Source of the DNA: Alphaproteobacteria bacterium
GTDB lineage: Bacteria > Pseudomonadota > Alphaproteobacteria > CAAHEQ01 > UBA3637
Assembly (NCBI GenBank): GCA_017647405.1
Contig: JAGCKR010000019.1
Location: 1,913-65,912 of the forward strand
Length of the DNA stretch: 64,000 nucleotides
Reading direction: 5' to 3'
Shown here: positions 1 to 34,300 of the stretch, piece by piece
Layout of the letters: each line of letters opens with the position of its first letter
How positions within the stretch are numbered: the stretch's first letter is position 1
Notes under the pieces: model-generated
What the model saw: the letters and a program-made list of their open reading frames with translations, nothing else
What the model was told of the DNA's origin: nothing
Databases searched by the model: none
Made by a program: the position numbers and the translations under genes

Positions 1-542
1 TCCAAATTACCTGTCGGCTCATCGGCAAAAATAATGGATGGATTATTTACCAGTGCCCTTGCAATAGCAACACGCTGTTGCATCCCACCGGAAATTTGAG
101 TTGGTAATCTGTCCTCATACCCTTTCAATCCCACTACTGAAAGCATTTCAACGGCCTTTTTATATCTTTCTTTTTCGCCAACGCCTCGATAAATCAACGG
201 CATTGAAACATTATCCGCAATGCTTCGTTTCATCAACAGATTAAAATTTTGAAAAACAAAACCAATTTTTTCACCACGCACTATTGCTAATTCATTATCT
301 GTTTTTAAGGAAACCAAATCTCCTTGTAGATAATATTTCCCGCTGGTTGGTCGATCTAAACAGCCCAAAATATTCATAAGTGTAGATTTGCCGGATCCGG
401 AATGTCCCATAATTGCAACAAATTCACCTGATTTGATTTGAAAAGAAATATGCTTCAATACAGATTGGCTCATCCCTCCTGCCATATAGTATGTTTTACA
501 TAAATCTTTAACTTCAATAACCGTTTGTTTTGTTGCTTTCAT
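1..542 (-). CDS. ABC transporter ATP-binding protein, MacB/LolD-like. N-terminal part only; the gene continues beyond the window start.
   Basis: Reverse translation from the ATG at 542..540 gives [14 protein letters not shown]...[22 protein letters not shown] (Walker A), then [15 protein letters not shown] (ABC signature). The ATG overlaps the stop of the upstream adaptor gene (TAATG). Confidence 0.8.
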
Positions 543-1654
543 TATTTCCTACCATTTTTTTGAATATGTTCCGTGATAAAAGAGTCACCTTCTTTTAAAC
601 CATCTTTCACCTCAACATAAGAAGCATCCATGATTCCTCTAGTAAATACGATTGGGTGAATTTGACCGTTTTTAAGCTGATAAACAACGCTTTGATTTGG
701 ATTTAAATTTAAAGAAATTTTCGGCAAAAATTTACGAACAGCCGCATTTGGTTTATATTGCAAAGCCGCTGTTGGGATTCTTAACACATCATTGACATCA
801 TGAATAATAATTTGAACAAAAGCCGTCATCCCCGGCAACAGTTTTCTTGATGAATTATCCACCTCAATCACAACAGTATACATCACAACATTTGATTCTT
901 CAGTTGGAGATAAGCGAACTTGTTTAATCACGCCGGCAAATGAATCATTCGGATACGCATCAACCGTAAACGTTGCTTTCATTCCTGATTGAATGGCCCC
1001 AATATCCGCTTCTGCAATACTTGCTTCAATTTGCATTTTTGATAAATCTTCAGCAATAGTGAACAATGTTGGCGTTTGAAGACTGGCGGCCACCGTTTGA
1101 CCTTGCTCAACTTCCTTTGAAATAACGGTACCTGAAACAGGTGATGTAATTTGCGCATAACCATAATTGCGCTCAGCCTTATTATAATCCGCCGTTGCCG
1201 TCAACACATCAGCGTCTGCTATTGCTAAATTCACTTCGGCTTCTTCCAATGTTGCCTTTGCAATTAACTTATCTTTATAAAGTTTTTCATATCTTTTAAA
1301 ATTCAAATCAGCAACTTTCTTTTTGGCATGTGCCAAATCAAGGCGCGCTTTGGCATCATTTTTATTTTCAACCAATACCGCCGTATCTAATTGAGCCAAA
1401 AGTTGCCCCTCTTTAACTTCATCATTATAATCAACCAACACACGTTCAACTATACCGGAAACTTGGGTACCAACACTGACCGTATTAATCGGTTGAATTT
1501 TCCCAGAAGCGGTAACTTCTTCAACAATGCGTCCTTTTTCAACTTTCAAAATTTCAAAATCAGATGGTTTTAAAGTAGCCTCCTCTCCTCGAGAAAAATA
1601 AAAAACACCACCAATAACCCCTATTAATACCAAACTCCATATAATTTTTTTCAT
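542..1654 (-). CDS. Periplasmic adaptor (membrane fusion protein) of the HlyD/MacA family, from a tripartite efflux pump.
   Basis: 370 aa with an N-terminal TM anchor, a coiled-coil region and C-terminal beta domains. It lies between a TolC-like OMP gene and an ABC ATPase gene, with overlapping stop/start codons. Confidence 0.8.
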   Translation of the reverse strand: MKKIIWSLVLIGVIGGVFYFSRGEEATLKPSDFEILKVEKGRIVEEVTASGKIQPINTVSVGTQVSGIVERVLVDYNDEVKEGQLLAQLDTAVLVENKNDAKARLDLAHAKKKVADLNFKRYEKLYKDKLIAKATLEEAEVNLAIADADVLTATADYNKAERNYGYAQITSPVSGTVISKEVEQGQTVAASLQTPTLFTIAEDLSKMQIEASIAEADIGAIQSGMKATFTVDAYPNDSFAGVIKQVRLSPTEESNVVMYTVVIEVDNSSRKLLPGMTAFVQIIIHDVNDVLRIPTAALQYKPNAAVRKFLPKISLNLNPNQSVVYQLKNGQIHPIVFTRGIMDASYVEVKDGLKEGDSFITEHIQKNGRK

Positions 1655-2997
1655 TAAAATCTCCCTATTGCTCTATATAACGTTGCTTTACTCGTTAAAA
1701 CAGAATAATAAGCCACAATCACTTCTTTTCTGGCTGTTGAAAGTTGCGAACCAGCCGTCAAAAGGTTTAAAATATCACCTTTGCCAACCTGATACGAGGC
1801 AAAAGCCACCCGTTCATTTTCTTTAGCACTCTCCAAAGCTTTTTTGCTGATATCGTATGAAGAAACGGCTGTTTTATAATTATGATATGCAGTCCACACC
1901 TCATTTTTAACTGTTTGAGTGACATCTTCTTTAGAAAAGAATGCCTGTTCTTTTTGATATTCAGCCTGCTTTATTTTATATGTATCCGAAAAACCCGTAA
2001 ACAAGGGAACAGATACATTAATACCAACCGATGACCCATATTGATATAAACTCTCTTTCCGCCAATCATCATTCATCCCCATCTTGGCCGAAAAAGAAAT
2101 TTTCGGCAATGCTGCTGCTTTTTGAACCTTCACATTGGCAACTGCCGCCTCAACATCTTTTTGACTTTTTTGAATTTCAGGGCGCAATGTTAATGCCGTT
2201 TCAATCATTTCGGAAACAGGCATATCTCCCATTTCCAACTTTGTTAAATCTTTATCATTTTTAGGCTTTAACAAATTAAACTTTGTTTCAGGCGAAACAT
2301 TTAATAACATAGCTAATTTGCCCTGACTTGTTTTGACTTGGTTTTCAGCTTGCACAACTTCTAATCTGGATTCTTCATAGCTTGTTTTTGCTAAAAGTTT
2401 ATCACTCAGGGAAACTAACCCCAATTCATAACGCTTTGAGGATTCTTCAAATGATTTCTTAAAACTGGCCTCACTTGTTTTAGCGCTTTTTAAAATTTCT
2501 TGTGCACCAAGTAATTCAAAATAGGCATTATTAATACTTAAAAATGTATCTTTCAGCAAAGCATTATATTGAAATCCTGCTGCATCCAAATATTTTTTTT
2601 CTCTTTCCAAACGTGCTGACCGCCCACCAAAATCATATATCAACCAGGACAATCCTATATTTGCCGAATAAGGATCTGTTTCAAAAGAAGAAAATTCTTC
2701 CCCATTCGAATATGTTTTCGAAAGAGATCCATCAACATTAACACTTGGCAAATATTCAGATTTTGCACTCCCCAATTCGGCTTGCGAAGTTTTAACTTGC
2801 ATATATCCCTTATTTAACATCGGATTATTGCAAAAACCGATTTCCAAAAGTTCCGGCAACCCTATTTTATTTTGAGTTATATCTTTATCAATACAGCCTT
2901 GTGGTGACTGCGTATTAAAAACAGATAAAGGATCAAACGCCAACGCATTCAACGAAACAAAAAAAACACAACCTGTTAATAACAATCTTTTTTTCAT
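1654..2997 (-). CDS. TolC-like outer membrane efflux protein.
   Basis: 447 aa with a signal peptide (MKKRLLLTGCVFFVSLNALA) and two coiled-coil/beta repeats typical of the OEP family. First gene of the OMP-MFP-ABC operon. Confidence 0.8.
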   Translation of the reverse strand: MKKRLLLTGCVFFVSLNALAFDPLSVFNTQSPQGCIDKDITQNKIGLPELLEIGFCNNPMLNKGYMQVKTSQAELGSAKSEYLPSVNVDGSLSKTYSNGEEFSSFETDPYSANIGLSWLIYDFGGRSARLEREKKYLDAAGFQYNALLKDTFLSINNAYFELLGAQEILKSAKTSEASFKKSFEESSKRYELGLVSLSDKLLAKTSYEESRLEVVQAENQVKTSQGKLAMLLNVSPETKFNLLKPKNDKDLTKLEMGDMPVSEMIETALTLRPEIQKSQKDVEAAVANVKVQKAAALPKISFSAKMGMNDDWRKESLYQYGSSVGINVSVPLFTGFSDTYKIKQAEYQKEQAFFSKEDVTQTVKNEVWTAYHNYKTAVSSYDISKKALESAKENERVAFASYQVGKGDILNLLTAGSQLSTARKEVIVAYYSVLTSKATLYRAIGRF

Positions 2998-11547: not shown

Positions 11548-12183
11548 CTAGCTCATTCGACCATTTGAATTATTAGAAAATCCACCAGTATTTTGAGTGA
11601 TATTAGACCCGACCGCTCTTAAAATAGCACTTAAAGATTGTTGTTCCCCATCCACAGCCATTTGAACCAATCTAACTATCCCCGGTACATTATTTAAATA
11701 TTGGACTTGTTGCTCTGTTTGAACTGATCCATTTCTTTGCATACGCACATCCGAATATTTTGAACGACGCGCTTCTGTTTCAGAATATCTTTTTCTCGTA
11801 TCAGTATCCGGATTATAGTTTCTTGCAGCACGCAGCGCTAATTCTTCCCCTCCAAGAACTGAACCATTTTCTTCTTTGGAAATGGCCATTGTCATTGCCG
11901 CTCTAAACTCTGGATCAGAAAAATCGAGCCTTGTGCTAAAATCAATATCATATCCTTGATTTCTTAAATAAGCTAAAACATCACGCGCATATTTGGAAGG
12001 ATTATTACCGCCATCGCTACTGGGAGCATACATGGCAAACATTTCCTTTAAAGTCATACGATCATATCTTCGATATAAAAGCGAATTTAAAGCCGTATAC
12101 CCCTCTTCTAACGTTGCATATTTTGCGTAACCATTGCCGGATCTGATACATCCCGGATTATTATTTTTTGTCCCAATACCCAT
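11548..12183 (-). CDS. Hypothetical protein with atypical, Ala/Arg/Gly-rich composition.
   Basis: 211 aa. The local GC content and amino-acid usage differ from the K/N/I-rich neighbours. It carries an N-terminal NNPGCIRSGNGY motif and a C-terminal tail QQSLSAILRAVGSNITQNTGGFSNNSNGRMS. No confident family assignment. Confidence 0.5.
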   Translation of the reverse strand: MGIGTKNNNPGCIRSGNGYAKYATLEEGYTALNSLLYRRYDRMTLKEMFAMYAPSSDGGNNPSKYARDVLAYLRNQGYDIDFSTRLDFSDPEFRAAMTMAISKEENGSVLGGEELALRAARNYNPDTDTRKRYSETEARRSKYSDVRMQRNGSVQTEQQVQYLNNVPGIVRLVQMAVDGEQQSLSAILRAVGSNITQNTGGFSNNSNGRMS

Positions 12184-12253: not shown

Positions 12254-13366
12254 TTATCGATCTCCTCTACTCATATCCAAAATTGGAAGAGGCTCTGTTC
12301 TATCATTTTGAGAAATTTCTTCACTGCTTGCTGCCAATGTTGCAGAAAGTCCTCCTGAAGGTGCCGGCGCTTCTCGTCGTCCAGTCATCACATCAAATGC
12401 TAAATCAGGATTATCCCTATATGCTTCTACTTCAGATGCAGAAATAAAGTGATCTCCATCAACATCTAATCTTCCCAATGCCGTTCGATATTCATCTCTA
12501 GAAACTGTTCCATCATTATTTACATCAAGCTCTTGAAATCTTTCCCCAATAACGCCGGCAGCATCATCTCCAAGTGTTCTCATTAAATTATATCTGGCAA
12601 AATTGCCATCATCATATTCTACTTCATCAATAGCTTCTCTATGATGAGCTTGAATAAAAGCTAATGCCCCACTAAGACCTCCATGCGCATCAATTTCCGA
12701 TTGAGAAATATTACCATCTTTATCCGCATCTAACAAATTTCTGGCACTATTCAGCTCTAACATATCCACACGCCCATCTCTATTTTGATCTAAATCAGCG
12801 GCAATGCCTTGTATAATCTGTTCATCTTCAACATGAAATGTTTCCTGTAAAGCTTCTCTATCAAAATCAACATCGTTACTCAGCAATTTTCTCATTTGAT
12901 AAGTTGATTGAGCCGTACTTACTGTATCTTCCAAAGTTTTTCCAAATGGAATAAGCGCACCAAAAAAACCGGAAATTTTGCCACCTATCCAAGATAATCC
13001 TTCCCCTATTTTATCCCAAAAGGACAACCTTTTTGAATTAACAATTTCAGAAAATTCATCTGTTCCAGTAGCCCCTTCAATACCACTCATCACAGAAGCA
13101 TTTAGTTGCCCTGCTTGATAACCTTCCAATACAACATCACCAACACCCGAAACAGTGTTAAATCCAGGGGTATTCCTTGCTTCTTGAACAGCACGGTTCG
13201 CAAGACCTTTCCCAATTTCAACAATATCTCCTTTTGCAAGTTTTTTAGCATCAACATCAAAACTGAGCGCTTGCGTAAAAGAGTTTCCACTCCGCGCTTG
13301 CCTCATAGCAGTCAGAGTATCCGTTTCACTTTCACCATATGCTTGATGATTTTCAGGCTTTTTCAT
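12254..13366 (-). CDS. EF-hand calcium-binding protein with four canonical EF loops.
   Basis: 370 aa. The four EF loops are DQNRDGRVDMLE, DADKDGNISQSE, DVNNDGTVSRDE and DVDGDHFISASE, all fitting D-x-[DN]-x-D-G-x-[IV]-x-x-x-E. Composition is atypical. The C-terminal tail is GGLSATLAASSEEISQND. Confidence 0.65.
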   Translation of the reverse strand: MKKPENHQAYGESETDTLTAMRQARSGNSFTQALSFDVDAKKLAKGDIVEIGKGLANRAVQEARNTPGFNTVSGVGDVVLEGYQAGQLNASVMSGIEGATGTDEFSEIVNSKRLSFWDKIGEGLSWIGGKISGFFGALIPFGKTLEDTVSTAQSTYQMRKLLSNDVDFDREALQETFHVEDEQIIQGIAADLDQNRDGRVDMLELNSARNLLDADKDGNISQSEIDAHGGLSGALAFIQAHHREAIDEVEYDDGNFARYNLMRTLGDDAAGVIGERFQELDVNNDGTVSRDEYRTALGRLDVDGDHFISASEVEAYRDNPDLAFDVMTGRREAPAPSGGLSATLAASSEEISQNDRTEPLPILDMSRGDR

Positions 13367-13438: not shown

Positions 13439-14447
13439 CTATCGCCCTTGAGATTGCCTATACCCAACCATAACATCAAAAGCTGCATTTGGATCATCTT
13501 TATAAGCCGATACTTCTTCTCGAGATGCCGTACCATCTCTATTTGTATCCAAACGACCAAGCGCAGTTCGATACTCATGCCGAGAAACCTCTCCATCATT
13601 ATTCCGATCAAGTTCCTCAAATCGCTCTCCTATAACCTGAGCAGAAGCATTACCAAGCGTCCGCATTAAATTATATCTGGCAAAGTTACCTCCATCATAT
13701 TCTACTTCATCAACGGCTTCTTTATGATGCGTCTGAATAAAAGCTAATGCCCCTTCAATACCACCACGAGCATCAATTTCCGATTGAGAAACAGTACCAT
13801 CATTGTTTATATCCAATAACTTTTTTGCTGCAGAAAGCTCTAAGACATCCAACTATCCATCTTTATTTTGATCCAATAATTTTGCTGCTTTTTGCATAAG
13901 GTCCTCATCATCAACATGAATAATCTCTTGTAAATCTTCTCTGTCAAAATCAACATTAAAATTTCAGTTGCAGCATCGTAAACAACTTTTGACATATTGG
14001 TTGCATCTACCGCACTTCCAAAAAATGGAACGATTGCTCGCACTCCTGAAACAATTGACTTGCCTATCCAAGAAAAAAACGACCAAATCGCTTCAAGCGT
14101 TGTTTTACGTTCAGACGTAACCCTTTCTGATAGTTCATCAACACGCAAGGCTCCACCAACACCATACCAAAGTGAATCATGCAACTGTGATGCCTGATAT
14201 GCATTTTCACCCGCATGAACAACCCCTTTCACTCCAGCAACACCAGGGGTTCTGTTTTCAATCACGTTGATTACACCATTTCCAACAGTTTTAGCAATAG
14301 CTTCCTCATTACCTGATATCACTGCAAGCTGGTTTGTTTCAAAAGGGGTATATTCATCCAAAACAGATCTGTCTCTAGCATTTTGCATTGCTGTCACAGA
14401 TCTGTTTCGTTAAAACCGTATGCATAGTGTTCTGTTTTTTCTGTCAT
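13439..14447 (-). pseudogene. Frameshifted tandem paralog of the EF-hand protein gene.
   Basis: Three consecutive minus-strand fragments align to the intact upstream copy. The first (ATG at 14447) reads MTEKTEHYAYGFNETDL*. The second is ORF 13840..14397, TAMQNARDRS...WSFFSWIGKSIVSGVRAIVPFFG. The third is ORF 13439..13852 with EF loops DINNDGTVSQSE, DRNNDGEVSRHE and DTNRDGTASREE. The reading frame changes near 14395 and near 13850-13990. Confidence 0.6.
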
Positions 14448-14637: not shown

Positions 14638-15627
14638 ATGGAAGAAATTATTTTCCCTAACCAAATCAGAATGTTCAGACGTGTTCGAGGTAAAACGATG
14701 AAAAGCTTAGCTGATGCTTTAGGGTTAAGTTTATCTGCTATTTCAAAAATCGAAAAAGGATACAGACGCGTTGATGATGTTCAGTTAAAGAAAATATCTG
14801 CTTTTTTAAACTGCCCAAGTGAATCTCTTTTCGTTAGTGAACGTTCTTCTCAACCAGAAGTTATAAAAGCATGGAAACGCGAACAAGAACGCAGACAAAA
14901 AATCAACTCTGGCTCCGGTTTAAAAACATTGGGTGCTGGTTTAAGATATTTGCGTGGAGAAAAAGGGTTAACTTTATATAACGTTGCCAAGGGCGCCAAA
15001 ATGACTCTTTCGGTTTACCACCGCATTGAAATGGGCCAACGCGAGGTTGATGAAAAAACTTTTAAAGATATTGCTCATGCACTTGGTTATTCCGAAACAG
15101 ATCTCCAACTGAAAATTTATGAATTAGATATGTCTGGAGCATTAGATGAATTAAAATCTCTTGATGGAAAATCCGGTGTTTTCACCTCAAAAGGCGGATA
15201 TAATGATCTTCCAGTCAGCCGATTTATGGTTAGAACAGCCGATTCACAAGAATTTTCAGTTCCAATTTATGGCTTCCCAGCCGAAGGAGATCAAGTTTTA
15301 GTAAACAAAAAACAATCTATTGGTTCTGTTCTTTGCCCATCAACACTTTCAAATGAAAAGGATTTATATGCTATTCGGTTAAAAAATCAGGTATTAGGAC
15401 CCGCTGTTCCTGTCGATGCTGTTTTGGTTGTTGCTCCGGAAGTTAAACCAAACAAAGGAGATATCTGTGTTTTGCCAATTGAAAATGACAGAGTTAAAAT
15501 TGGCGTTTTCAGAACAAATGGGAATGATCAACCAACAATTTTTTCTCCTATTACGGAGCAAACGAATATTCTGTCAACAAATGAGCTTGAATCAATGCAT
15601 CGAGTTGTGATGATTATGATGAGCTAA
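14638..15627 (+). CDS. XRE-family transcriptional regulator with tandem HTH domains and a C-terminal S24 (LexA/CI-like) domain that may be non-catalytic.
   Basis: Two HTH_3-like segments (MKSLADALGLSLSAISKIEKG and LTLYNVAKGAKMTLSVYHRIEMG). The C-terminal beta-rich region has a GDQVLV/GDICVLPIENDRVKIGVF pattern resembling the LexA C-terminus, but with no obvious GDSM serine. An RBS AAAGGAG is upstream. Confidence 0.6.
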   Translation: MEEIIFPNQIRMFRRVRGKTMKSLADALGLSLSAISKIEKGYRRVDDVQLKKISAFLNCPSESLFVSERSSQPEVIKAWKREQERRQKINSGSGLKTLGAGLRYLRGEKGLTLYNVAKGAKMTLSVYHRIEMGQREVDEKTFKDIAHALGYSETDLQLKIYELDMSGALDELKSLDGKSGVFTSKGGYNDLPVSRFMVRTADSQEFSVPIYGFPAEGDQVLVNKKQSIGSVLCPSTLSNEKDLYAIRLKNQVLGPAVPVDAVLVVAPEVKPNKGDICVLPIENDRVKIGVFRTNGNDQPTIFSPITEQTNILSTNELESMHRVVMIMMS

Positions 15628-15668
15628 AGGGGACCGACAAAAAATCACAAAAATAAGGAGAAATCATT

Positions 15669-17126
15669 ATGACAGATACTCTAAAGGATTCATATCCAAT
15701 GCCAACAGAAGATGAGAACTTTGCTTCTCCTTCTGATTTGGCAGAACAGGAATTACCGCCTTTTCAAAATATAACGGAAGATGATATCTTTGCGCACAAC
15801 ATTGACGATGCTTTACTGCAAGAGGCAAAAAATGGCATAGATTATGATGAAAATAATTTACCGGAACGAGAATATATTCCGATGCCGACAATCTTTGAGC
15901 CAATTCCAGAAGAAGCCCAAAAAGAAATTCTTTCGAAGTTTGCCCTTAAAAAACGCGAAAAAGAAAGTTCCGTTATAAAAACAGCACAACGCCTCGTGAA
16001 CCAATTTCGTGCACTATCTGCTTTCCGTGATGATTATGTTGCCGAATATAATGAAGAACTTCTGAATGCTTCTGAAGATGTTCTCTCCTTTTTGCCAACA
16101 ATTATCGGTGGTCCGGCCGTTCGCGAATATTTGGATTACTTGTTAGCTCACAAACAACAAGGCAAAGTTTTTGATCAAGATAATATCGATTTTACTATCA
16201 CCAAAAAGCAAGGCTATCTGCCCTCACCTGATGAAGATGAAATTTATACCGCACCATTAAGAGAAAGTGGCGGTCAAAATATTTCCATTGATCATACACC
16301 GCTTATTCAACAAACACAAATTCTATCTGATACATTAAACTCTCTGAAAAAGAGTTTATCAGACCAAACAGCAGAATTAAAATCCGCTATCACGTTAATG
16401 GGTGAAGCTATTAACAGACCAATTCAAGTTAATACAGAAGGAACTCTTGCTGTTCAACCACAAGAAAGCAGCGAGCAAATTGCTAAATCAGTTCAAATTC
16501 AACGAGAAATGCTTGAAACTGCTTTTGAAAAAATGGTAACGATGCAATCAGATCTTTTCCAAAAAACTGTTGAAGAACTGTCAAAAACCGTTCAAGCGAT
16601 GCAAGAACAGTTACGTCCAACCGGTGTTGTTCGTCAAGCACTGAGCTCTTTAAAAGCGGCACAACAAACAACGAAAGAAGAACAAAACATAGACTCAACC
16701 CAAACAGACGTAAAAGAGAAAAAATCATTAAAACGACAAAATAAAAAAGAAGTTGCTAAATTACCTATAGTCGAAACAACTCAGGAAAAACAACTTGAAC
16801 CAGATTCTTTTGTGGCTCAAGAAGAACAGAATTCAAATCTCGTTGAAGAAAAAGAACCTTTAGTATCAGATGAGATCAAAGATGAAACTCTATCTTCTTT
16901 GGAAAAAGAGGCCGTAGAAACAAAAGAAACCGTTGACCCTTTTAAACCGGTGTCAAAAACAGATGTTCAAGAAAAACCTTTTTCATTGTTAGATGAGCTT
17001 GGCATTAGTGATGAATTTGATTTATATGGCGCAGACAAGAAAAATAAAACCTATTCACTACTTGATGAACTTGAAGATGATGAAATAGAAATGCTTTCAG
17101 AGTTTGATATTTCAAAACAAGATTAA
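15669..17126 (+). CDS. Hypothetical acidic protein with a coiled-coil region and C-terminal repeated SLLDEL-type acidic motifs.
   Basis: 485 aa, rich in E/D/Q. The C-terminus reads FSLLDELGISDEFDLYGADKKNKTYSLLDELEDDEIEMLSEFDI. An RBS AAGGAG is upstream. It is the first gene of a four-gene co-directional cluster. Confidence 0.55.
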   Translation: MTDTLKDSYPMPTEDENFASPSDLAEQELPPFQNITEDDIFAHNIDDALLQEAKNGIDYDENNLPEREYIPMPTIFEPIPEEAQKEILSKFALKKREKESSVIKTAQRLVNQFRALSAFRDDYVAEYNEELLNASEDVLSFLPTIIGGPAVREYLDYLLAHKQQGKVFDQDNIDFTITKKQGYLPSPDEDEIYTAPLRESGGQNISIDHTPLIQQTQILSDTLNSLKKSLSDQTAELKSAITLMGEAINRPIQVNTEGTLAVQPQESSEQIAKSVQIQREMLETAFEKMVTMQSDLFQKTVEELSKTVQAMQEQLRPTGVVRQALSSLKAAQQTTKEEQNIDSTQTDVKEKKSLKRQNKKEVAKLPIVETTQEKQLEPDSFVAQEEQNSNLVEEKEPLVSDEIKDETLSSLEKEAVETKETVDPFKPVSKTDVQEKPFSLLDELGISDEFDLYGADKKNKTYSLLDELEDDEIEMLSEFDISKQD

Positions 17127-17149
17127 GAGGATATTGGGGGACAAAAAAA

Positions 17150-18664
17150 ATGGCAAATACAACAAATTTACTAGAAGCTCTTTCCTCTTATAAAGGGGAT
17201 CAGGCGTCTCTTTCAAATTTTGTTGCAATCGCAAAACAGGAATTGGGTGATGAGTGGACATCAACCATCTATCAAACATTACCCAATTTACCAAATGGCT
17301 TAAAAGAAAAACTAGATCATGCGTTTCAATATAATGGCGCCTCACTGGCTTGGACAGAAATCCAATCTTATCTTTCCAATAAAGAGCCACTTGATATTGA
17401 ACATGTATCGGAACGTGTTGAAACATTAGACTATTGGCTCAAATTTTTTGGTAATGCCGGCGAAACTGTTATTCAACAGTTAAAGGACAAATTAGAACAA
17501 GAGAAAAAAATTCAAGAAACCATCCCTGTTAATGAAACTGACTTCATTGATGATACTTCTTTTGTTGAGGAAACTCATCCGGTTTCAGACCCATCTGAAT
17601 ACTCAGCTGATGAAGAAAATTATCCCGCTGAAAATCTCCAATCTGAGATATATGATGAAAATACATTTACTCAGGAAAGTTCAGAATACTCAACTACTGA
17701 TAATAACGAATATTATGAAGAGCCGGCAGCTGAAAATTATACTGAAGATAATTATCAACAAGAAGAATATACTGGCTATGATGAAGAATATGTGAACAAT
17801 GGCTATATATCAGAGGAATATTCCAATCAAAACGAAGAATATTATCAAGATACATATCAAGACAATGCTTATGACGATGCATCATATGATAACACCACCT
17901 ATACACAAGAAAATAATTTAGAAGAATATTCTGATCAAAATTATCAACAAGAAGAATATAGTGATAACGGTTATTATGATGATGCATATACCGATCATAG
18001 TTATGCCGAAAATGAATATATTCAAGATGCGGATGATAGCCAAAACGAAGAACAGTTCGTTTCACTTGAGGATCAAGAAGCTCCTTTTTGGCGCACACCT
18101 GTATATGAACCGCAACAGCCTGAAACAAATGAAGAATTTATGTCAAGAAAAGTATTTCACCAAATTGATTTTTTAACGGCTGTCAGATGTTGGATCAATG
18201 CGCGTTGTATTTCTCTGGGAAATAAAGAAATATACAGCTATCGACATTATGGCTTTTTAATTGATATTATGGAAGAAACAAAAAAAGATTTGGAAATTGT
18301 TTTAGGGTCACCAACTTATTATCCCGCAGTTGAACAAGTTCGACCAGATGGTATCAAACAATTACAATCATTTTTAAAATCTCTTGAAAGTGATTTAAAA
18401 ACAGCCTATGACAATTTACCAAGCGAACTGACAGATCTGATCAGTGACTCCACAAATGTTAATGATTTGAAAAAAATGCTTGGAGCTCTTGATACATCAG
18501 ATAAACCAGAACTTTTAGGCGTAGCTCCTGATGGTTTTGAAATGCTTGATGATCCTTTTGATGGAATTGATACAGAAAAAACAAAAATACCCCCTTCACA
18601 AAAAGATCAAACTGGTATACAAAAGAAAAAGACTTTTTCTTTTAACAAAAAAAATGCTTCGTAA
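17150..18664 (+). CDS. Hypothetical protein with a central Tyr/Glu/Asp/Asn-rich low-complexity region.
   Basis: 504 aa. Residues roughly 140-300 are a Y/E/D/N/Q low-complexity region (for example EEYTGYDEEYVNNGYISEEYSNQNEEYYQDTYQDNAYDD). It is flanked by ordinary N- and C-terminal domains. An RBS is upstream. Confidence 0.55.
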   Translation: MANTTNLLEALSSYKGDQASLSNFVAIAKQELGDEWTSTIYQTLPNLPNGLKEKLDHAFQYNGASLAWTEIQSYLSNKEPLDIEHVSERVETLDYWLKFFGNAGETVIQQLKDKLEQEKKIQETIPVNETDFIDDTSFVEETHPVSDPSEYSADEENYPAENLQSEIYDENTFTQESSEYSTTDNNEYYEEPAAENYTEDNYQQEEYTGYDEEYVNNGYISEEYSNQNEEYYQDTYQDNAYDDASYDNTTYTQENNLEEYSDQNYQQEEYSDNGYYDDAYTDHSYAENEYIQDADDSQNEEQFVSLEDQEAPFWRTPVYEPQQPETNEEFMSRKVFHQIDFLTAVRCWINARCISLGNKEIYSYRHYGFLIDIMEETKKDLEIVLGSPTYYPAVEQVRPDGIKQLQSFLKSLESDLKTAYDNLPSELTDLISDSTNVNDLKKMLGALDTSDKPELLGVAPDGFEMLDDPFDGIDTEKTKIPPSQKDQTGIQKKKTFSFNKKNAS

Positions 18665-18685
18665 TAAAAAAAGGGACTTAAACAA

Positions 18686-19867
18686 ATGAAAAAAATCTCC
18701 ACCATTTTTTTACTTTCAACATTTCTTATTTCAACCGGGGCTACTGCTTCATTGAATAATATTTATAGCATTATTCAACAACAGTTTACCCCTCAACAAC
18801 ACAAAGTTGAAAATTCTTATTTGAATACACTTGATTTGGAATCTCCCTATCGTTGCAAAATTGATGGCGGACACAATAAAAATATTTCAACAACCATACC
18901 GGTTAATTTAAATGATTTTAAACTGTCAAAAACAACACCGTCTGATCCAATGCCTCGTTTTGAAGTAAATGGTTATACATTTAAAAATCAGGCTCTTGAT
19001 GAAGCACTTCAAACACTTGTTGATGAAGCAGGAATTTCTGTTTACACACAAGATAGAGTTTATCCAACATTGTCTGCAAAAAATGTTTATGGTGATTTAG
19101 AATCAGTTGTAGAAGCCTTAAGTAAAAATGGTGAAGTTTTCTACTCATATAATGAGGCTGCAAAAAAACTTTACATTTCAAGACAAGCTGATTTCACCAT
19201 TTCCCTTCCAAAAAACAGATTGGTTATTTTAGGTGTATTAGATGCCTTACGTGGTGCCGGTGTTGAAAATATTGTAACCGATTGGCATCAAGGTGTTTTA
19301 CGCTTAACCCTTTCAAGAGCCGAGGAAAAAACGGTAAAAGATTTAATCGAAAGTATTCAGTCAAACGGTGAAATGCTTGTTGCCGATACTCAAACATATC
19401 AATTAAACTCTGTTGCTGATTGGAGAAAGATCATTTATGAATATGGTCACAATAATGTTTTTTCAGCAACAAACGGTTTACAAGGAAAATTACTTGTTTT
19501 AAATAATTCAGCAAAAAGTAACTCTTTTTTGAATACCGTTCAAAAAACAAGCATTGCCCACTTAACAAGTGAAGGCATCAGTGTTGTTCCAAATGGTTGG
19601 CGAATGTTTTTCGATATTTCAAAGTGTGGCATTAAAGATTCACAAGCACCTCATGTGAGTTTAAGCATAAATCCTAAAATGGATTCTGAATCAAAAATAA
19701 ATGCCCTTATTACTCTCAATGCACAACAAGGCGAAATTTCATCATTTAACGTTACAGCGTCACTAAATGATGAATTAGCGATCATTGGTATACCAAATAT
19801 TGCTGTTGGAGGCGAATTATTAATTTTGGTAAAATTAAAACTTATTCGTTTGGTAGGAGAAAATTAA
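18686..19867 (+). CDS. Hypothetical secreted (periplasmic or outer-membrane) protein.
   Basis: 393 aa with a signal peptide MKKISTIFLLSTFLISTGATA. An RBS AAGGGA is upstream. The stop overlaps the next ATG (TAATGA). Confidence 0.55.
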   Translation: MKKISTIFLLSTFLISTGATASLNNIYSIIQQQFTPQQHKVENSYLNTLDLESPYRCKIDGGHNKNISTTIPVNLNDFKLSKTTPSDPMPRFEVNGYTFKNQALDEALQTLVDEAGISVYTQDRVYPTLSAKNVYGDLESVVEALSKNGEVFYSYNEAAKKLYISRQADFTISLPKNRLVILGVLDALRGAGVENIVTDWHQGVLRLTLSRAEEKTVKDLIESIQSNGEMLVADTQTYQLNSVADWRKIIYEYGHNNVFSATNGLQGKLLVLNNSAKSNSFLNTVQKTSIAHLTSEGISVVPNGWRMFFDISKCGIKDSQAPHVSLSINPKMDSESKINALITLNAQQGEISSFNVTASLNDELAIIGIPNIAVGGELLILVKLKLIRLVGEN

Positions 19868-20694
19868 TGACAGAACAAAATAAACCCGTTAATCAACCTT
19901 CTGCAACACAACAACGAACAGGTCAACAACCTCAAACTGGCAGACCTCTTCAACAAAGGCCTCTTCAAGGCGTTCCGCCTCAAGCAAACAGGCCTCAGCA
20001 AGGAATCTCTCCCCAAGCAAACAGACCGCATCAAGGTTCTACCGCACCTATGCATAGACCAACATCACCTCAAGGTCACCCCATGCATGCCGGTACATCT
20101 CACCCTGCAAGACAAGGTCAAATGCCTTCCAGAACAGGGATTCCGCAACGACAAATGGGGCAAAGACCGTTAAACACTCCTCCATATACACATCCGCAAG
20201 GTTCTGTGAGACAAGATCAAGGTCAAATGCAAAAACAAATAAATTCTATACCACAACAACAGGAACGACCACCACAAAACCATAATAATCAGTCTTATCA
20301 GGAAACACCTATATCCCCTGCTCAATCATTTTTATCAAATTCCAGAAATTTAACATTCATATTAATTGGAGCAATTATTTTTGGAATTTTACTTGGAGCC
20401 ATGATGTTTGGTGGTTCTTCGCAACCTGTCCGCACAGGTTTACAAAATTTTGTTAAAAATCAAGATATCAGACAAAAACTTCCATTATGTGGAAGAGTTG
20501 TTAAAGGACAGGCCTGTATTCTTTATATCATGAATGCAACAAGATATGACAGATTGGCTGAAAGTTTCTTTGATGAAGCACTGAGATTAACAGAAGTTCC
20601 CAGACGAAATATTGAGTGGGCAAATCCTAAGTATGCAAAGCAACGAATTCCGCCGGGAGCTTTTGCTGAAATTTTTATTCCAAATGTCAGATAA
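19867..20694 (+). CDS. Hypothetical bitopic membrane protein with an N-terminal Pro/Gln-rich repeat region.
   Basis: 275 aa. The N-terminus has repeats such as PQANRPQQGISPQANRPHQG. One TM helix LTFILIGAIIFGILLGAMMFGG is followed by a C-terminal domain of about 95 aa. The ATG overlaps the previous stop. A rho-independent terminator follows. Confidence 0.55.
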   Translation: MTEQNKPVNQPSATQQRTGQQPQTGRPLQQRPLQGVPPQANRPQQGISPQANRPHQGSTAPMHRPTSPQGHPMHAGTSHPARQGQMPSRTGIPQRQMGQRPLNTPPYTHPQGSVRQDQGQMQKQINSIPQQQERPPQNHNNQSYQETPISPAQSFLSNSRNLTFILIGAIIFGILLGAMMFGGSSQPVRTGLQNFVKNQDIRQKLPLCGRVVKGQACILYIMNATRYDRLAESFFDEALRLTEVPRRNIEWANPKYAKQRIPPGAFAEIFIPNVR

Positions 20695-20726
20695 AAAAAA
20701 GAGGGTTCATCCCTCTTTTTTTTAAT
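20695..20726. terminator. Bidirectional rho-independent terminator.
   Basis: AAAAAAAAGAGGGTTCATCCCTCTTTTTTTT: a 7-bp GC-containing stem flanked by an A-run and a T-run, sitting between convergent genes. Confidence 0.7.
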
Positions 20727-22218
20727 CTCTTAATTTATCTTTATTTTTATTAGCAAGTCGTCCACTTCTTGCCCCCAGAGATTGCAATAATTTTTTTATT
20801 ATTTTTCCTTCCTCCGGCGTTTTAACCCTTGATAATATAATATCAAAAATTGTTTGTTTATTTTTTTTCATTTTCTGATTTATCGGAACACCAAATTCTT
20901 TCAAAAGAGAAACCATTTGAACCATTTTAAAAGGTATGGCATCCGATTTTTCAATCAAATCTAACACCCCTTCCCCTTTTTTATTTTGAAGAAACGGATC
21001 AGCACCAGATTCCAATAATAATTTCATCATTTCCAAATCATTTTTTAATACAGAAACCATTAAAGGGGTTTCACCGGCTTCATTTTCAACGTTAACATAT
21101 ATCCCCCATTCTATCAATTGTTTTAAATGATTAGCATTCCCTTTTTGGATGATCTGAAAAATGCGAGGATTTCTTTTTTCATTTTCGCACGCCTCTTTTA
21201 ATAATCTGGCAATTTCATATTTTTCATTTTGAACAGCATAATCAAGTGCTATTTTTCCACGATAATCCTTTTTCATTAAATCTGCTCCCATATCAATAAA
21301 ATAGGTTACCAATGGTTCATGCCCTTCAAAAGAAGCAATCATAAGAGGGGTTGTCCCATTTTCATCTGTAGTGTTGATATCTATTCCTCCGGTCATCATT
21401 TGCTTAACAATATCCAACTTTCCCTTAGAAACAGCACTCAAGAATCTTTTTGGTAATTTCTTATATTTTGGCGAAAGAATATTTTCTCCTAACAAATCAA
21501 TAAAGTAATTCAAAACTTCTTTATGTGATTTTTCTGCCGCTATTTCGGCGGCGGTCAATTCTCTTTTATTTTTTTTCGATACATCAGCCCCATTTTCAAC
21601 CAAATACTTCACAATATCCAATTTTCCGGCACCAGAAGCCAACATTAATGCCGTGTTTCCATCTTTACTTATCTGATTAACATCAATCCCATTGTTGAGC
21701 AATAATTTACTCATCTGGCTATACCCCAAAAAAGATGCCAACATTAAAGCATTCATACCTTCATTATTTTGATGATGAATATCAACCCCCATCTCAAGTA
21801 ATTTATTAACCAAGGCTAAATTATCTTTCTTTACAGCTAATAATAGTGCTGTCTCTCCTTCATAATTCGCCTTTTGAATATCAGCACCAGCCTGATATAA
21901 AGCATCAGCAATTTCTTTATTACCTTGCCAAACGGCGACAAGAAACGGTGTCAAGGCGCCTTTATTTTGAGCATCAATAATGGCTCCATTTTTTAATAAA
22001 AGCGTTGCAATATCTTGCGCATTTTCCCAAGAAGCCAACATCAATGGGGAATTTTCAAAATCATCTAGCTGATTGACATTTACACCAGCTTGAATTAACA
22101 GTGAAACAGCATCCAAATTTTTTTCCCTGATCGCTTTATGTAATAAAAATTCACCTTGTTCATTCGGTTCATTTAAATTTTTACCCTCAGCAATTAATCT
22201 TTTAATTTTTTCAAGCAT
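20722..22218 (-). CDS. Ankyrin-repeat protein.
   Basis: 498 aa with at least 10 tandem 33-aa ANK repeats (G-TPL-A...G---V--LL--GA--N consensus, for example DGNTALMLASGAGKLDIVKYLVENGADV). Confidence 0.85.
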   Translation of the reverse strand: MLEKIKRLIAEGKNLNEPNEQGEFLLHKAIREKNLDAVSLLIQAGVNVNQLDDFENSPLMLASWENAQDIATLLLKNGAIIDAQNKGALTPFLVAVWQGNKEIADALYQAGADIQKANYEGETALLLAVKKDNLALVNKLLEMGVDIHHQNNEGMNALMLASFLGYSQMSKLLLNNGIDVNQISKDGNTALMLASGAGKLDIVKYLVENGADVSKKNKRELTAAEIAAEKSHKEVLNYFIDLLGENILSPKYKKLPKRFLSAVSKGKLDIVKQMMTGGIDINTTDENGTTPLMIASFEGHEPLVTYFIDMGADLMKKDYRGKIALDYAVQNEKYEIARLLKEACENEKRNPRIFQIIQKGNANHLKQLIEWGIYVNVENEAGETPLMVSVLKNDLEMMKLLLESGADPFLQNKKGEGVLDLIEKSDAIPFKMVQMVSLLKEFGVPINQKMKKNKQTIFDIILSRVKTPEEGKIIKKLLQSLGARSGRLANKNKDKLRD

Positions 22219-28378: not shown

Positions 28379-31300
28379 TTAGAAACGCATTTCAAGTTTA
28401 AGCATTCCAGAGTGATCCTGATACTCTTTTCTGAATGTACCAGAATATTCAAGTTTCAAACTTGTTCGGTCAGATAATTCGGCTTCAAGACCGGTTGTAA
28501 CCGTTGAGCTCAAGCGATCCAAAGCTTCACCTTTAACAGTGTAACTCGCCCCATTAGAAAGTGTGTTGGTAACTGACATATCATCTGTAATAATATCATA
28601 ACCAAACATCACTCCTGCCATTGGGCGAACTTTAAATCCTTTAACCGTTTTCATTGGTGCATCTATATCTAATCCCAACATAACCGTCATATAGTCAGAT
28701 GATAAATTATCAACTGTTGTACCAAGTGAATCAGTATATGCTTCTTGATTCAAGCGCATATAACTTAATCCAAATTTCGGTGTCAACACAAGATTTTTAT
28801 ACGTATAATCATAACCCAATATACCTTGAAGACCTAACACATCAACATTGTAATTGGCACTTGCGCTCGTTGAAAGAATATATTTATCTTCTTCATACTG
28901 ACCACGCATATAACTTGCAATTCCATCAACAAACCAATTTGATGGTTGATATTTCAAATAAATAAAACCAGCATTGTTTTGAGCAATCGTTTCTCTGAAT
29001 GTTTGTTTCACATCGGCATGAGAATAAGAATAACCGGCACCAAGAATCAATGAATCCGTCACCTGTGTTTGAAGAGCCAAAATGCCTCCTGTTCCATTAA
29101 TCTTATAATTCCCATTTGATGAATTTTTTGTATGGGAATAAAAAGCTTTTCCCCAAACAACAGATCTTGGTGCTTCATCACCACCTGCTCTGCCAGTTTT
29201 TGCATTCATTGCTTTAACCGATTGTGTTTGAACAGCATTTGAAATTGAATTAAAATGTTCAAAACTAACTGTTTGAATAATCGGTTTTATATCACCACCA
29301 ACAGCATTCACTGACTCTACAGCCTTTTGTTTTGCCTCTTTATTATCCGATTGCAGATAATCAATCAACTCTGCTTGCATTTTGTTAAATTCCTGATTTT
29401 CAGAAGTGCCTTTATGCAAAGCAAGAATAGCCTTTGTTTCGTTTTCATCAGATCCAAAGGTTGAAGCTACCTCATTTGAATTTGTTGAAATAAAAGAATA
29501 ACGTCCATCCTTCATATCCAAAATTTGGTAATCATCGCCGTTATAATTGACTTGAGGCAATGACATAATCTCATTCATATAGAAGATTTGATATAAACCA
29601 GCTTCGAAATTATCTCCTAAATTTAAATCAAGAACAGCGGCAGCAGCTGAATTTATTTGCTGTCCTTTAACAACGGCATGTTCAGATAAGCCGTTTAACG
29701 TAACAGAAATCGTTGAACCTTCTCCTAAAGACAATTGGTTCAATGTCATTTGAACTGTTCCCAAATCAAATTGAGAGTTTGAAGAAACTTCAAAATCAGC
29801 CACAGAAATCTCTTGAACACTGTCACCTAAAATCATGTTATGACTTACCAAACTATTTTCAGTTTTAAAGGAAGATGACACATTCAAAATGGAATCATTC
29901 ATATAAAGCGTTCCATTACCATCTAACGGTTGTGTCAGTGATAAAACACTTCCCTCTTCAACGGTCATATCAGCATTATTGGTTACATTTCCAGTTAAAG
30001 AAACATCTCCTTTCACTTGAAGGGATGCTCCTAATTTATTTTCAATTGTTGCCTCTGTTTGCATATCAACAAGAGTCAACTCTTTTTCATTTGAAATTAA
30101 TCCTTGAGCCGAAACGTTTGTTAATGTTAGTTTTCCTTTATTTGAAACAGATTCGGTGACAGTTGTTTGGGTTAAAACCGCTTCCCCAAGTGAGTTGTTA
30201 TTAAGCGTGTTAATCACCATTTTTTCTGCTGTTAATACGTTATCATTATTCACAATATCTGCTTCTGAATCATCATTTAAAAAGGCAGTTCCACTATTAT
30301 TCAATGTTTGAACGGTTGAATAAGAATTAAAACTCACCTGACCCAAAGTATTATTCATTGTTTGAACTTCAGTCAAAGATGAAGCATCCGTTCCGCTAAA
30401 TAATGCTGTAGCATTTGCATTTTTATTTTCAACAGAAGAAACCATTCCACCTATCATTTGCAATTGAGCATTATTATTCACTGTTTTTAAAGAACTTTCG
30501 CCATTCACCATTAACGTTCCATCATTTGAAATTGAACCGCCAGTTCCTGTTATTTGAACATTTGTTAATGTTAACTGTGATGCATTTTCAATTGCTTTAT
30601 CTGCCGAATTATTAATTATAACATTATTAAAAATTGTTTCTCCTGATCCTAAAGCTGTTTTTAAAACAGATCCAGCATTTTTAATTGTCAAATCCTGAAC
30701 TGTTAATTTAGTTAAACTTGATTGAACATCAAACAAATCGTAACCAACCGCATTAATAACACTTTGAGTAGCATCTGTTGATTTACCATAAATATTCTTT
30801 GCTCCCTCACCTGTTTTGCCTAACCCAGCACCAACAGTATATTCAACAACTCCTGAGGTATTTCCAGAAGCTACATCCATATAAAAAGCACTGTTGCCAT
30901 TATATTGGTTGATATGAGACAATGTTTTATCATCAGTCAATCCAACAGCTTTAAATTTAACAGATTGAAGCAATGAATCTGTTTCATTTTCAACAAGTTG
31001 TGTCACATAAGAATAAGCATTTGTCTGGGCGATATAAGAAGCTAAATCCGTTGAAGGAATATTATCAAACTCCGCTTCCCCACTCAAAACTTGAACAGTA
31101 TACTCTTTATTTAAACCACTATCTGCTACCTTACTATCAACAACAAGATTAAAATGAATCCCTGTTATTTTAAAACTATCATCAGTCGCGTTAACAACAG
31201 TTAATTTATCAGATTTGGCAACAATACCAGAACCCGTTGCATCCACTGTTAAACCTAAATCAAATTTACCAATTGCTGAACCAGAAGCATTTTGAATGCT

Positions 31301-34300
31301 AACATTGTTATATCGGTTTTGATTTTCTTGCAATGAAATCGTTGAATTATTAACGAATGTATATGTTTCACCTTCATAAGAAGAACCAGTTAATTTAACT
31401 GTTCCATTGTTAATACGAACCATATCATTCGCGTTATTATTTACATCTCCCCCCATATCTGCCATGGCATAGTTACCACGAACAAATTCAATGGTAGCAT
31501 TCCCATTTTCTGCGCTGGATATAACCAATTTATTGGCATTTTGTTGTTGCGTTCCACTTGCCGTATGACGAATAATTCCATTTGATGTTGCCGTTGCACC
31601 ATATCCCAATGTAGCTCCAGAAGTTTCCAACGTTCCACCTTTAATTATATTATTAGAAGAACCCCCTTGGAAAAAATCTTCACTTGAAGCAATGGTTGTT
31701 CCAGCTGTCTGAATAAACTGACCAGAAAAAGTGTTATTCTTTGCACTTGTTCCCTTAATTAAATTCAATTTACCAACATTGTTAATTATACCTGTTCCAG
31801 TAACTCCATTCAATTGAACTGTTTCAGAACCTTGAATATTTAACACATCTGAAACTGTTGTAACCCCTGATACAACAAGTTCATCACCAGCCACATTTGA
31901 AAGTAATGTCACCTCACCAGAAATAATATTTAATGTTTTTTGAATATCCGTTCCATTTAATGAGGCTAAACTATTTGATCCTGCATTATTTTCAAATGAT
32001 TCAATTGATCCACCTGTAACAGTCAATTCACCTGAATTAACAACACTTTTCATCGACACATTATTCGTTGCTGTCAATGAACCGCTATTTGAAACGCTAT
32101 CAAAAGTCACACCATCAGCTTTAACAACACCTGCATTTGTTGTGTTACCAGAAATAATTACCTTATCTGACGCATTTGCTTTCAAATCAACTGTTCCACC
32201 ATTAACGGTTAATGTATTCAAATCTGTTCCGTTTAATGTGGCTAAACTGTTTGATCCTGCATTATTTTCTAATGTTTCAATTGATCCACCTGTAACCAAT
32301 AATGAAGAATTATTTCTTACACCTAACAAAGAGCTGTTATTCGATATTAAACGTCCTGTATTAACAATTTCACCTTTTGTGCCTGTTACAGAAACATTTG
32401 TTAAAGAAAGTGTTGCTCCATTTTGAATGACAATATTATTATCATCACCAGAATTATTGATTATCACATTATTAAATTCAGCATTTCCTGATCCTTGTTC
32501 ACTAGACAAAACCAAACCAGCATTTTCAATTTTCAAATCCTTAACCAACAGAGTTGTTGTTTGATTTTCACCACTTGTATCTTGAACAAGATTAAACATA
32601 TTATATGTATTTGCATTAATAATGCTTACCGGTGTTGTTGATGAATCAGTTGGAGCCTCCCCAGATATTATCTTTTGACCATATCCTGTTACACCTAAAT
32701 CACCATTCTCCATTACATACGTTTGCGAAGAGGAAGGAATAAAAGAACTATTCCCGTCAAAAACATTTACTGCATACAGATCATCACTTGCCCGAATGAT
32801 GTTCTTCAAAATAATTGATTGCCCATTATCAGACAAATCTATATTATATTGAAATCCATTTGTAAAGGCAAAATCAGGGGCAGAAATAAACTGTGCATTG
32901 CCTTTTAATACATCTATTTGATATGTTCCACCATCAGCAAAAAGTCCCAAATCAAAACCATAATTAATTAATTCAGGATTTAATGTAAATGTATATGATG
33001 TATCAGATGTTAATGTATCAGATAAGAAACTAATTGTTCCATTATTTTCTTGCATCAGGACATTAAAAGCAAAAACAGCCCCACTACCAGACATATTTTG
33101 AAATTTAATGTCTTCGATAGCATTTTCATCTGTTCTAGCCTCAACAATCGAATTAGCATCAAACTGATATGTTTCACCCAAATAACTGGTTCCATAATCA
33201 CTTCTTCCTTTAACCTGCACCGTAGCATTTTGAAAGCTGATTATATCTTCACTTGTTCCAGTACCCATATCTGAAAACATTTGGTAATTGCCATTAACAA
33301 ACGTTATACTGGCAGATGATGAAGCATCACTATCCCCATATAATTCAAGCGCATTGGCGTTTACAATATTGTATCCTGTATTGGTTTCAACTGCCGTATG
33401 CGTCAAAGAACCATTTTTTGAAACAGCAGCATAATAATTTAATTTTTCACCTTTTGTGACTAATTGTCCACCATAAATGTTGTTTGTGCCTTTAAAAAAT
33501 TGAGTACTATTAGCATAAGTTGTTCCATTATATTGATTAAATGTTCCAGTATATCCGGCGTTGTTTGAATGAGACACGCCAAGTAATGCCGTTTGCGTTA
33601 AATTTGCGTTAAAATAGTCTTTTGAAGACAAGAATAATGAACCTGCTGAATATTTGTTTATTATTCCACTTCCAGATATTCCACCTTCAGTTATCAATTC
33701 ATCAGCTGTTGTTTGAACTGCTGTTGATTCAGCATCTCCAAAATTTAAAACAACATTACCTCCTGACATATAGATATCATTTTTTTGTCCATTAGCCATA
33801 TTTCCAGAAAATGAAACACCACCTTTAAATGAAATGACACCAGAGGCATTTGAAATTGCCCCTCCATTTCCCGTTGCCGTGTTTCCAACAAAAGAAACTG
33901 AATTTAAAAATGTGATAACTGCTCCAGAATTGGCTTCAATAGCGCCGCCACCACCATTTGTTGCTTTATTATTTTCAAAAATGGTTTGCCCGGCATTAAA
34001 ATCAATCAATCCTTTTGTATAAATCGCACCACCATACAACGCCTGATTTCCAGAAAACTTTGTGTATCCATTTGTAATCTCTTGATCATTAACTGTAACA
34101 GTGCTACCAGTAAATGTTGTTTGCGATTCTCTTGCTGCATGCAACGCACCACCCCATTTTGACGCCTGGTTGTTTAAAAACTCAGCATTGTTCACAGTTG
34201 CTGTTCCTTGGTTATAAATCGCACCACCGCCCATATCTAAACCCGTTGCTTTTGAAATATTTTCAGAAAAAGAAGCATTGGTTAAAAACATTTTTCCACT

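Follow-up and report, generated by a model that had tools for sequence, protein, structure and literature searches.

A four-EF-hand protein family with an orphan N-terminal domain and phage-type partner genes in uncultured alphaproteobacteria

What does a protein with four EF-hand loops do in an uncultured alphaproteobacterium, and where does its gene come from? The question is raised by a 64,000-nucleotide stretch of contig JAGCKR010000019.1 (assembly GCA_017647405.1), referred to as the window, which carries on its minus strand an intact gene for an acidic protein with a hydrophilic N-terminus and no Cys residue (Table 1). A Shine-Dalgarno-like sequence, AAAGGGGG, is located 5 nt upstream of the ATG. 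A sequence-only reading of this DNA had recognised the four loops correctly, but it left the strand unstated and overlooked three further elements: a broken tandem copy of the gene directly upstream, a gene for a 211-amino-acid (aa) protein downstream, here called the partner, and a family member residing in a prophage.

The EF-hand loops and their spacing

A PROSITE-like EF-loop pattern produced 7 matches in the six-frame translation of the 64 kb, all of them in the EF-hand gene or in the broken paralog immediately upstream. As the pattern is confined to these two genes, it is not a chance pattern. When judged by length (12 residues), oxygen ligands at positions 1, 3 and 5, Gly at position 6, a hydrophobic residue at position 8 and Glu or Asp at position 12, all four loops qualify. 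Loops 1 to 3 are fully canonical, while loop 4 carries His in place of Gly at position 6 and retains D1, D3, D5 and E12. Position 2 is occupied by Q, A, V and V in loops 1 to 4, respectively. The Pfam models EF-hand_1 (47.6 bits, cut-off 25.4; superfamily set PF00036/PF13202/PF13405/PF13499), EF-hand_5 (46.7 bits, cut-off 25.9), EF-hand_6 (42.6 bits, cut-off 25) and EF-hand_7 (40.1 bits, cut-off 30) were all matched above threshold, whereas Dockerin type I (PF00404) remained below its cut-off (14.9 versus 22.9 bits). The four loops quoted in the sequence-only reading are thus indeed present.

An alignment of six diverged full-length members, which are 38–49% identical to the window protein, showed that, in each of the four loops, the Ca2+-ligand positions 1, 3, 5 and 12 are either invariant or exchanged conservatively. 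Residues D193, N195, D197, E204, D213, G218, E224, D281, G286, E292, D301 and E312 are invariant. Judging from these sequences, binding of Ca2+ by the four EF-hand loops is very probable.

The arrangement of the loops is unusual. EF1 and EF2 are separated by the 8 residues LNSARNLL, and the consecutive inter-loop spacers measure 8, 56 and 8 residues in the window protein and 8/54–57/8 in every member. Since the spacer within a doublet comprises only 8 residues, its two loops share one central helix, so that each doublet has a helix-loop-helix-loop-helix layout; the two doublets lie about 55 residues apart. The 56-residue linker between them belongs to the best-conserved parts of the protein and contains the invariant residues G229, G233, A234, H242, I246, D247, E250 and Y251. 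In contrast, the 35-aa tail was found in no other family member.

An AlphaFold2 model of the C-terminal module (residues 165–340, seven sequences) reached a mean predicted local distance difference test score (pLDDT) of 82. In this model, every loop is predicted to be flanked by helices, and the sole predicted beta-bridge connects residue 167 of the degenerate pseudo-hand with position 7 of loop 1 (residue 199). When compared to the Protein Data Bank (PDB) by Foldseek, the model gave weak matches, most of them to EF-hand proteins (best E 0.37, template modelling (TM) scores 0.14–0.29); no global match was obtained in the PDB (TM-score ≤0.29), and none at all among the viral structures of BFVD. 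The C-terminal ~170 residues are thus confidently predicted to be composed of helix-loop-helix units, with a global fold that is not calmodulin-like. This bears on the proposal that the loops are paired as in calmodulin-like proteins. Adjacent loops in Ca2+-responsive EF-hand proteins are typically about 25 residues apart (PMC10232371), as compared to the invariant 8/56/8 pattern; this spacing, the low TM-scores and profile matches to PDB sequences that covered one hand at a time all speak against a calmodulin-like pairing. Structure prediction, which had been suggested as a check, placed helices around the loops and returned no calmodulin-like global match.

N-terminal domain, family distribution and gene turnover

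The EF-hand module is preceded by an N-terminal domain for which no match was detected in Pfam, NCBIfam, PHROGs, PADLOC and PDB sequence searches. The earlier statement that the first ~200 aa contain no recognisable domain therefore holds for these resources. Conservation in this part of the protein centres on the segment RLSxxxK..FSWIG....IP(F)G (residues 113–142), which is also the most hydrophobic stretch of the protein. Its highest 19-residue Kyte-Doolittle value is only 1.12, by which a classical transmembrane helix is ruled out. Other candidate assignments for this region were discarded as well: a sub-threshold match to CAP18_C on the amphipathic segment (E 0.03) was dismissed as chance, a glycine-zipper at residues 125–137 was rejected as the small-xxx-small pattern is not kept in the diverged member P0002, and Foldseek matches of a full-length model were considered meaningless, given its N-terminal pLDDT below 50.

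The N-terminus had also been proposed for inspection for secretion signals. No signal peptide was found by a simple hydropathy test (not SignalP), the N-terminal sequence MKKPENHQAYGESETD being hydrophilic, and in the relatives the highest 10-residue hydrophobicity within the first 35 residues did not exceed 0.12. When a 10-residue score above 1.8 was counted as signal-like, such N-termini were present in 94 of 111 generic bacterial multi-EF-hand proteins. At the opposite end of the protein, the other members (P0002, P0003, P0007, P0008, P0010 and the pseudogene) terminate in ...G(G)R, ...GRS or ...GRG, while the window copy continues for 35 residues beyond that point and ends in ...SRGDR. Partner proteins end in ...NGRMS and ...GRGRV, and an unrelated 340-aa protein encoded beside a partner homolog (L019:6948-7970) ends in ...QAGGR. 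The common C-terminal ...G(G)R end could be a sorting or secretion motif.

The family is very small. When 5.8 billion clustered sequences were searched with the full protein, no more than four relatives emerged. Scored against all 1.84 billion representatives, an N-terminal-domain profile retrieved 7 matches, all of them full-length family members or pseudogene fragments, and the family amounts to approximately five 50%-identity clusters among these representatives. With a profile of the C-terminal module, family members scored 202–278 bits, followed by a steep drop to at most 82 bits for generic proteins. Both halves are thus specific to one small clade; beyond the family, the only profile matches were generic EF-hand proteins. 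The latter are numerous: among 5978 candidates from genomes and metagenomes scored with the C-terminal profile, 312 multi-EF-hand proteins were detected at E≤1e-3. Together with published examples such as calerythrin, calsymin, CabB/CabC and EfhP (PMC4053335), this number contradicts the view that paired EF-hand proteins are uncommon in bacteria.

Within its clade, the gene is under purifying selection. At least 10 independent contigs contain the open reading frame (ORF) in intact form. The ratio of non-synonymous to synonymous substitution rates (dN/dS) is 0.24 in comparison to a 98%-identical ortholog (7 synonymous and 6 non-synonymous changes). Versus the P0002 and P0003 lineages it is ~0.38 overall, with values of 0.27–0.33 for the C-terminal module and 0.47–0.52 for the N-terminal domain.

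The tandem paralog has a different fate. Besides the frame breaks listed in Table 1, it carries an in-frame TAG at positions 13853-13855, within the EF1 loop. Its C-terminal half is still 66% identical to the intact copy, and the two genes share 75% DNA identity over 300 nt. Identical broken gene calls are present in independent assemblies, and other strains (P0006, P0009, P0011) exhibit differing subsets of the lesions; judged by this pattern, the decay of the paralog appears to be caught in progress. The two copies have diverged to dS >1 with dN/dS of 0.23–0.34, and this old divergence shows that the paralog had a long functional history before its inactivation. In a related metagenome-assembled genome (MAG; L015), the regulator and the partner are encoded without an EF-hand gene between them. 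Gene copies are thus gained, lost and pseudogenised between close lineages, and we are dealing with a tiny, fast-evolving family restricted to a single clade of gut-associated alphaproteobacteria, uncultured and low in GC, and to the prophages of these bacteria.

Phage-type neighbours and competing explanations

The partner gene follows the EF-hand gene in the related loci L005, L009-L012, L017/L018 and L022. Its product has no match in Pfam, but it resembles PHROG tape-measure and 'endolysin' families (1e-11 to 1e-12). By tblastn, it matched epsilon15 gp15 (annotated 'putative lytic transglycosylase'), a 'structural protein P5' and a T7-like internal virion protein D, with 29–30% identity over 55–83% of the length and E values from 7e-9 to 6e-4 among the records listed. 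A partner homolog is also found in the more distant locus L019. There (L019:3963-6939), a 653-aa protein, which has a weakly GH24-lysozyme-like N-terminus and, by sequence reading, two copies of the NNPG-type domain of the partner, is followed by a stand-alone partner homolog and by a 104-aa ORF with several hydrophobic segments, an arrangement that looks like a lysis cassette. The lineage of P0003 is organised differently: in place of the partner, the EF-hand gene is followed by genes for a 193-aa Gln_deamidase_2 protein (29.6 bits, cut-off 25; L007:1875-2456) and a phage gp30.3-family protein (L007:2500-3219), in a variable and mobile-looking neighbourhood.

A connection to a phage is provided by the diverged member P0010, which sits inside a prophage (L021). 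It is flanked by the large terminase gene on one side, and by genes for an endolysin, a portal protein, a GroES-like protein and a virion structural protein on the other; by sequence reading, the neighbouring block also comprises spanin-like and holin-like ORFs. The MAG that harbours P0010 additionally contains a syntenic ortholog of the window gene, P0008. The window copy itself is not located among structural, packaging or lysis genes, and phage affinities are restricted to its partner and the CI-like regulator. Around 11–23 kb, neither att-like repeats nor tRNA genes gave a convincing prophage boundary.

The regulator gene is divergently oriented and adjoins the module in every related locus examined. 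It is followed by four orphan genes without matches in Pfam, NCBIfam, PHROGs and PADLOC; the 504-, 393- and 275-aa products also lack a match among PDB sequences. The 504-aa product contains a long acidic low-complexity stretch, the 393-aa product a signal-peptide-like N-terminus, and the 275-aa product is rich in Pro and Gln and has a single hydrophobic segment. The complete unit of regulator and orphan genes (14638-20694) is syntenic in L013, L015, L017 and L022. It might represent an unrecognised surface or secretion apparatus, or alternatively a prophage remnant.

Table 1. Positions of the EF-hand gene, its parts and other features in the window.
Feature	Position	Strand	Remarks
EF-hand family gene, intact	12254..13366	-	ATG start, 370 aa, isoelectric point (pI) 4.45
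Orphan N-terminal domain	12875..13366	-	residues 1-164, predicted all-helical at low confidence
Pseudo-hand (degenerate), EF1 and EF2	12695..12874	-	pseudo-hand DVDFDREALQETFH, residues 165-178
EF1 loop	starts 12790	-	residues 193-204
EF2 loop	starts 12730	-	residues 213-224
Inter-doublet helical linker	12527..12694	-	56 residues, 225-280
EF3 and EF4	12431..12526	-	8-residue spacer YRTALGRL
EF3 loop	starts 12526	-	residues 281-292
EF4 loop	starts 12466	-	residues 301-312
C-terminal tail	12257..12361	-	35 aa, residues 336-370, modelled disordered
Tandem paralog, pseudogene	13439..14447	-	three frames, breaks near 14400 and between 13978 and 13957
Partner gene	11548..12183	-	211 aa, 70 nt downstream, no signal peptide, NNPGCIR-type domain
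Divergent regulator	14638..15627	+	329 aa, two HTH_3, weak C-terminal Peptidase_S24-like (CI/LexA-like)
Four orphan genes downstream of regulator	15669..20694	+	485, 504, 393, 275 aa
Ank-repeat proteins, two large	20722-22218, 48171-51062	-	
Chlam_PMP-like protein	28379-35872	-	2497 aa
Autotransporter	45247-48054	-	935 aa
Phosphofructokinase	38157-39251	-	
Pyruvate formate-lyase-like glycyl-radical enzyme	51552-53831	-	
OEP (TolC-like), HlyD-family membrane-fusion protein, start of MacB-type ABC gene	1-2997	-	ABC gene leaves window edge
PIF1-like helicase	60827-62158	+	93.6 bits

The remaining gene content informs about the organism. The GC content of the window is 28–40%, a GcrA gene adjoins polA, and one relative is labelled 'Alphaproteobacteria bacterium' by NCBI. 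GcrA is an alphaproteobacterial cell-cycle regulator. The repertoire of Ank-repeat, PMP-like and autotransporter proteins suggests interaction with a eukaryotic host, and the pyruvate formate-lyase-like enzyme and phosphofructokinase are pointing to a fermentative, anaerobic lifestyle. The assumption of a host-associated organism in the sequence-only reading fits this gene content, and a host- or gut-associated life is plausible. The PMP-like protein and the 935-aa autotransporter share similar N-termini (...ALKELxKRYxxx) and C-termini (LEYSGxFRKxYQDH). The OEP, HlyD-family and MacB-type genes are predicted to encode a MacAB-TolC-like tripartite pump. Nearly all 2-kb bins show a negative GC skew, which accumulates to -4.7 over 64 kb. 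No tRNA gene and no match to Rfam was detected in the whole window, and a scan for promoters and terminators yielded counts not above those of shuffled sequence.

How can these observations be reconciled? We consider it rather probable that the EF-hand gene is a phage-derived mobile accessory gene. The whole is best explained, with a probability of roughly 0.35, by a Ca2+-switched, phage-derived accessory pair acting at the cell envelope. According to this proposal, the EF-hand module would be empty in the Ca2+-poor bacterial cytoplasm and would become ordered at the high Ca2+ concentrations of the envelope or the exterior of the cell. The orphan helical domain at the N-terminus would be controlled by this change, and its conserved amphipathic FSWIG...IPFG segment would probably make the contact to a membrane or a partner. 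Together with the 211-aa protein encoded downstream, the EF-hand protein would then constitute a phage-derived envelope-acting pair of the lysogenic-conversion or ejection type, rather than a calmodulin mimic. The mechanism is proposed because an export signal is missing, the two genes keep a fixed pairing, a paralog resides in a prophage and copies have been gained and lost between lineages; in its specific form, with a Ca2+ switch operating at the envelope, it remains tentative and we would not expect all of it to be correct.

Several observations weigh against the envelope-acting pair. The hydrophobicity of the conserved segment is insufficient for a transmembrane helix, and the full-length AlphaFold2 model, which was based on a 6-sequence alignment, is unreliable in the N-terminal domain (pLDDT <50). 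The P0003 lineage has no partner gene and a different set of neighbours. The prophage-borne P0010 is followed by a gap of 546 nt, and it is possibly a passenger gene without a role for the phage. Moreover, no relative of the EF-hand protein or of its N-terminal domain was detected in GenBank phages, PLSDB plasmids, IMG/VR and BFVD. As the phage databases are blank, the link to phages rests on one prophage and on the weak similarity of the partner (~30% identity). A more pronounced version of the phage hypothesis holds that the protein is a Ca2+-triggered envelope protein of a phage or prophage, of a kind not described before, with an EF-hand module of 8-residue-spaced, helix-sharing doublets that is unfolded in the Ca2+-poor cytoplasm or capsid, folds at the Ca2+-rich envelope and activates an orphan, membrane-active N-terminal domain. 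Such a protein would act jointly with an ejection-protein-like muralytic partner, and in phages of gut alphaproteobacteria it would parallel, by means of EF hands, the folding that Ca2+ drives in RTX proteins. We regard this version as distinctly improbable.

Alternatively, in line with the secreted or host-mimicking factor suggested in the sequence-only reading, the protein might be a translocated or secreted effector that leaves the cell through a secretion system of type IV, I or III, binds Ca2+ inside a eukaryotic host (a protist or an animal) and directs its N-terminal domain to a host target or membrane. The host-associated appearance of the window, with its two Ank-repeat proteins, autotransporters and PMP-like giant, is compatible with this idea, as are the lack of a Sec signal, the pI of 4.45, the absence of Cys, the fast evolution and the turnover of paralogs. 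A sub-threshold match to XopAW (37 bits), the Gln_deamidase_2 neighbour in the P0003 lineage (29.6 bits versus 25) and the short ...G(G)R(G/S) end of all other members, a possible export signal, point in the same direction. However, the match to XopAW falls well short of the 120-bit cut-off, the window contains no dedicated protein-secretion system and no type III or type IV secretion genes but only the MacB-type tripartite pump, and no eukaryote-like sequence is found beyond the generic EF-hand motif. Type I secretion, for which the nearby OEP and HlyD-family genes were considered, is weakened by the third component, a MacB-type ABC protein that corresponds to an efflux-pump layout. An effector would also sit oddly with a paralog in the structural/lysis region of a prophage, with a partner resembling phage virion proteins and with the absence of the gene from a sister lineage (L015). 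We therefore judge an effector function unlikely, albeit a serious competitor.

The lack of an export signal and the intact ligands of all four loops would likewise suit a Ca2+ buffer or sensor that works in the cytoplasm for the physiology of the bacterium itself, a role that is known for calerythrin, CabC and EfhP (PMC4053335). But a housekeeping Ca2+ sensor should not be limited to about five 50%-identity clusters in 1.84 billion representatives, be lost or pseudogenised among close relatives, ride in a prophage and have an N-terminal domain evolving at a dN/dS of ~0.4–0.5; in view of this distribution and turnover, we have little confidence in this explanation. The adjoining broken paralog and the disordered 35-aa tail unique to the window copy could finally raise the suspicion that the gene is a decaying, functionless remnant and its loops are relics. 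Such a scenario is highly improbable because of the purifying selection: the gene is intact in at least 10 contigs at dN/dS values of 0.24–0.38, and ligands as well as the 8/~55/8 spacing are invariant among members of 38–49% identity.

As bacterial EF-hand proteins are common, the finding of EF hands as such is ordinary. What sets the protein apart are 8-residue spacers that are tighter than the 12–13 residues of lanmodulin and have no match among solved structures, the fusion to a domain known from a handful of sequences among billions, and the association with phage-type genes and fast gene turnover in an uncultured, probably host-associated gut lineage. If the Ca2+-switched envelope-acting pair proves to be real, it would reveal a new way for phages or symbionts to exploit Ca2+ gradients, and a compact new metal-binding scaffold; otherwise, the protein is a lineage-specific hypothetical protein with EF hands.

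Comparison with known systems

The closest counterparts of the partner are the phage ejection proteins of the 'P5'/NNPG type. In phages, however, this domain is part of virion proteins of 800–1300 aa, whereas the partner is a stand-alone chromosomal protein of 211 aa. We know of no experimental demonstration of an activity for 'P5'/NNPG-type domains in phages.

For the EF-hand protein, the best match in NCBIfam is the family of XopAW type III effectors (NF041410), which likewise possess an EF-hand pair and no signal peptide; yet the score of 37.3 bits (cut-off 120) comes from the loops only, with a big gap in the alignment. Calmodulin also contains four loops in two groups of two, and its single hands can be aligned with those of the family. 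But its profile matches among PDB sequences are limited to single hands, and none runs through the four hands in order, calmodulin-type structures reach TM-scores of 0.14–0.29 to the family model, and the spacing is ~25 residues as compared to 8 within the family doublets (PMC10232371). Calmodulin also lacks the extra 165-aa N-terminal domain of the family.

The only relatives of the C-terminal module outside the family are generic bacterial multi-EF-hand proteins of the EF-hand_5/EF-hand_7 type, including EfhP (PA4107) and periplasmic proteins of Sphingopyxis (L001-L004). They share the 12-residue DxDxDG loops with an acidic residue at position 12, the tandem arrangement and short spacers, but score at most 82 bits as opposed to 202–278 bits for the family, and they contain neither the orphan N-terminal domain nor the conserved 55-residue linker. 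In a set of 118 such proteins, spacers mostly measured 11–12 residues, and a length of 8, at which the family is fixed, was found in 4 of ~700 gaps.

Lanmodulin resembles the family in having four hands, short spacers and adjacent hands that share helices, and its NCBIfam model (NF053806) gave a weak match (18 bits, cut-off 135). It is distinguished by spacers of 12–13 residues between all adjacent hands, by a Pro in the second loop position and by a size of less than 200 aa (PMC10232371), in contrast to the 8/56/8 spacing, Q/A/V/V at position 2 and 370 aa of the protein described here.

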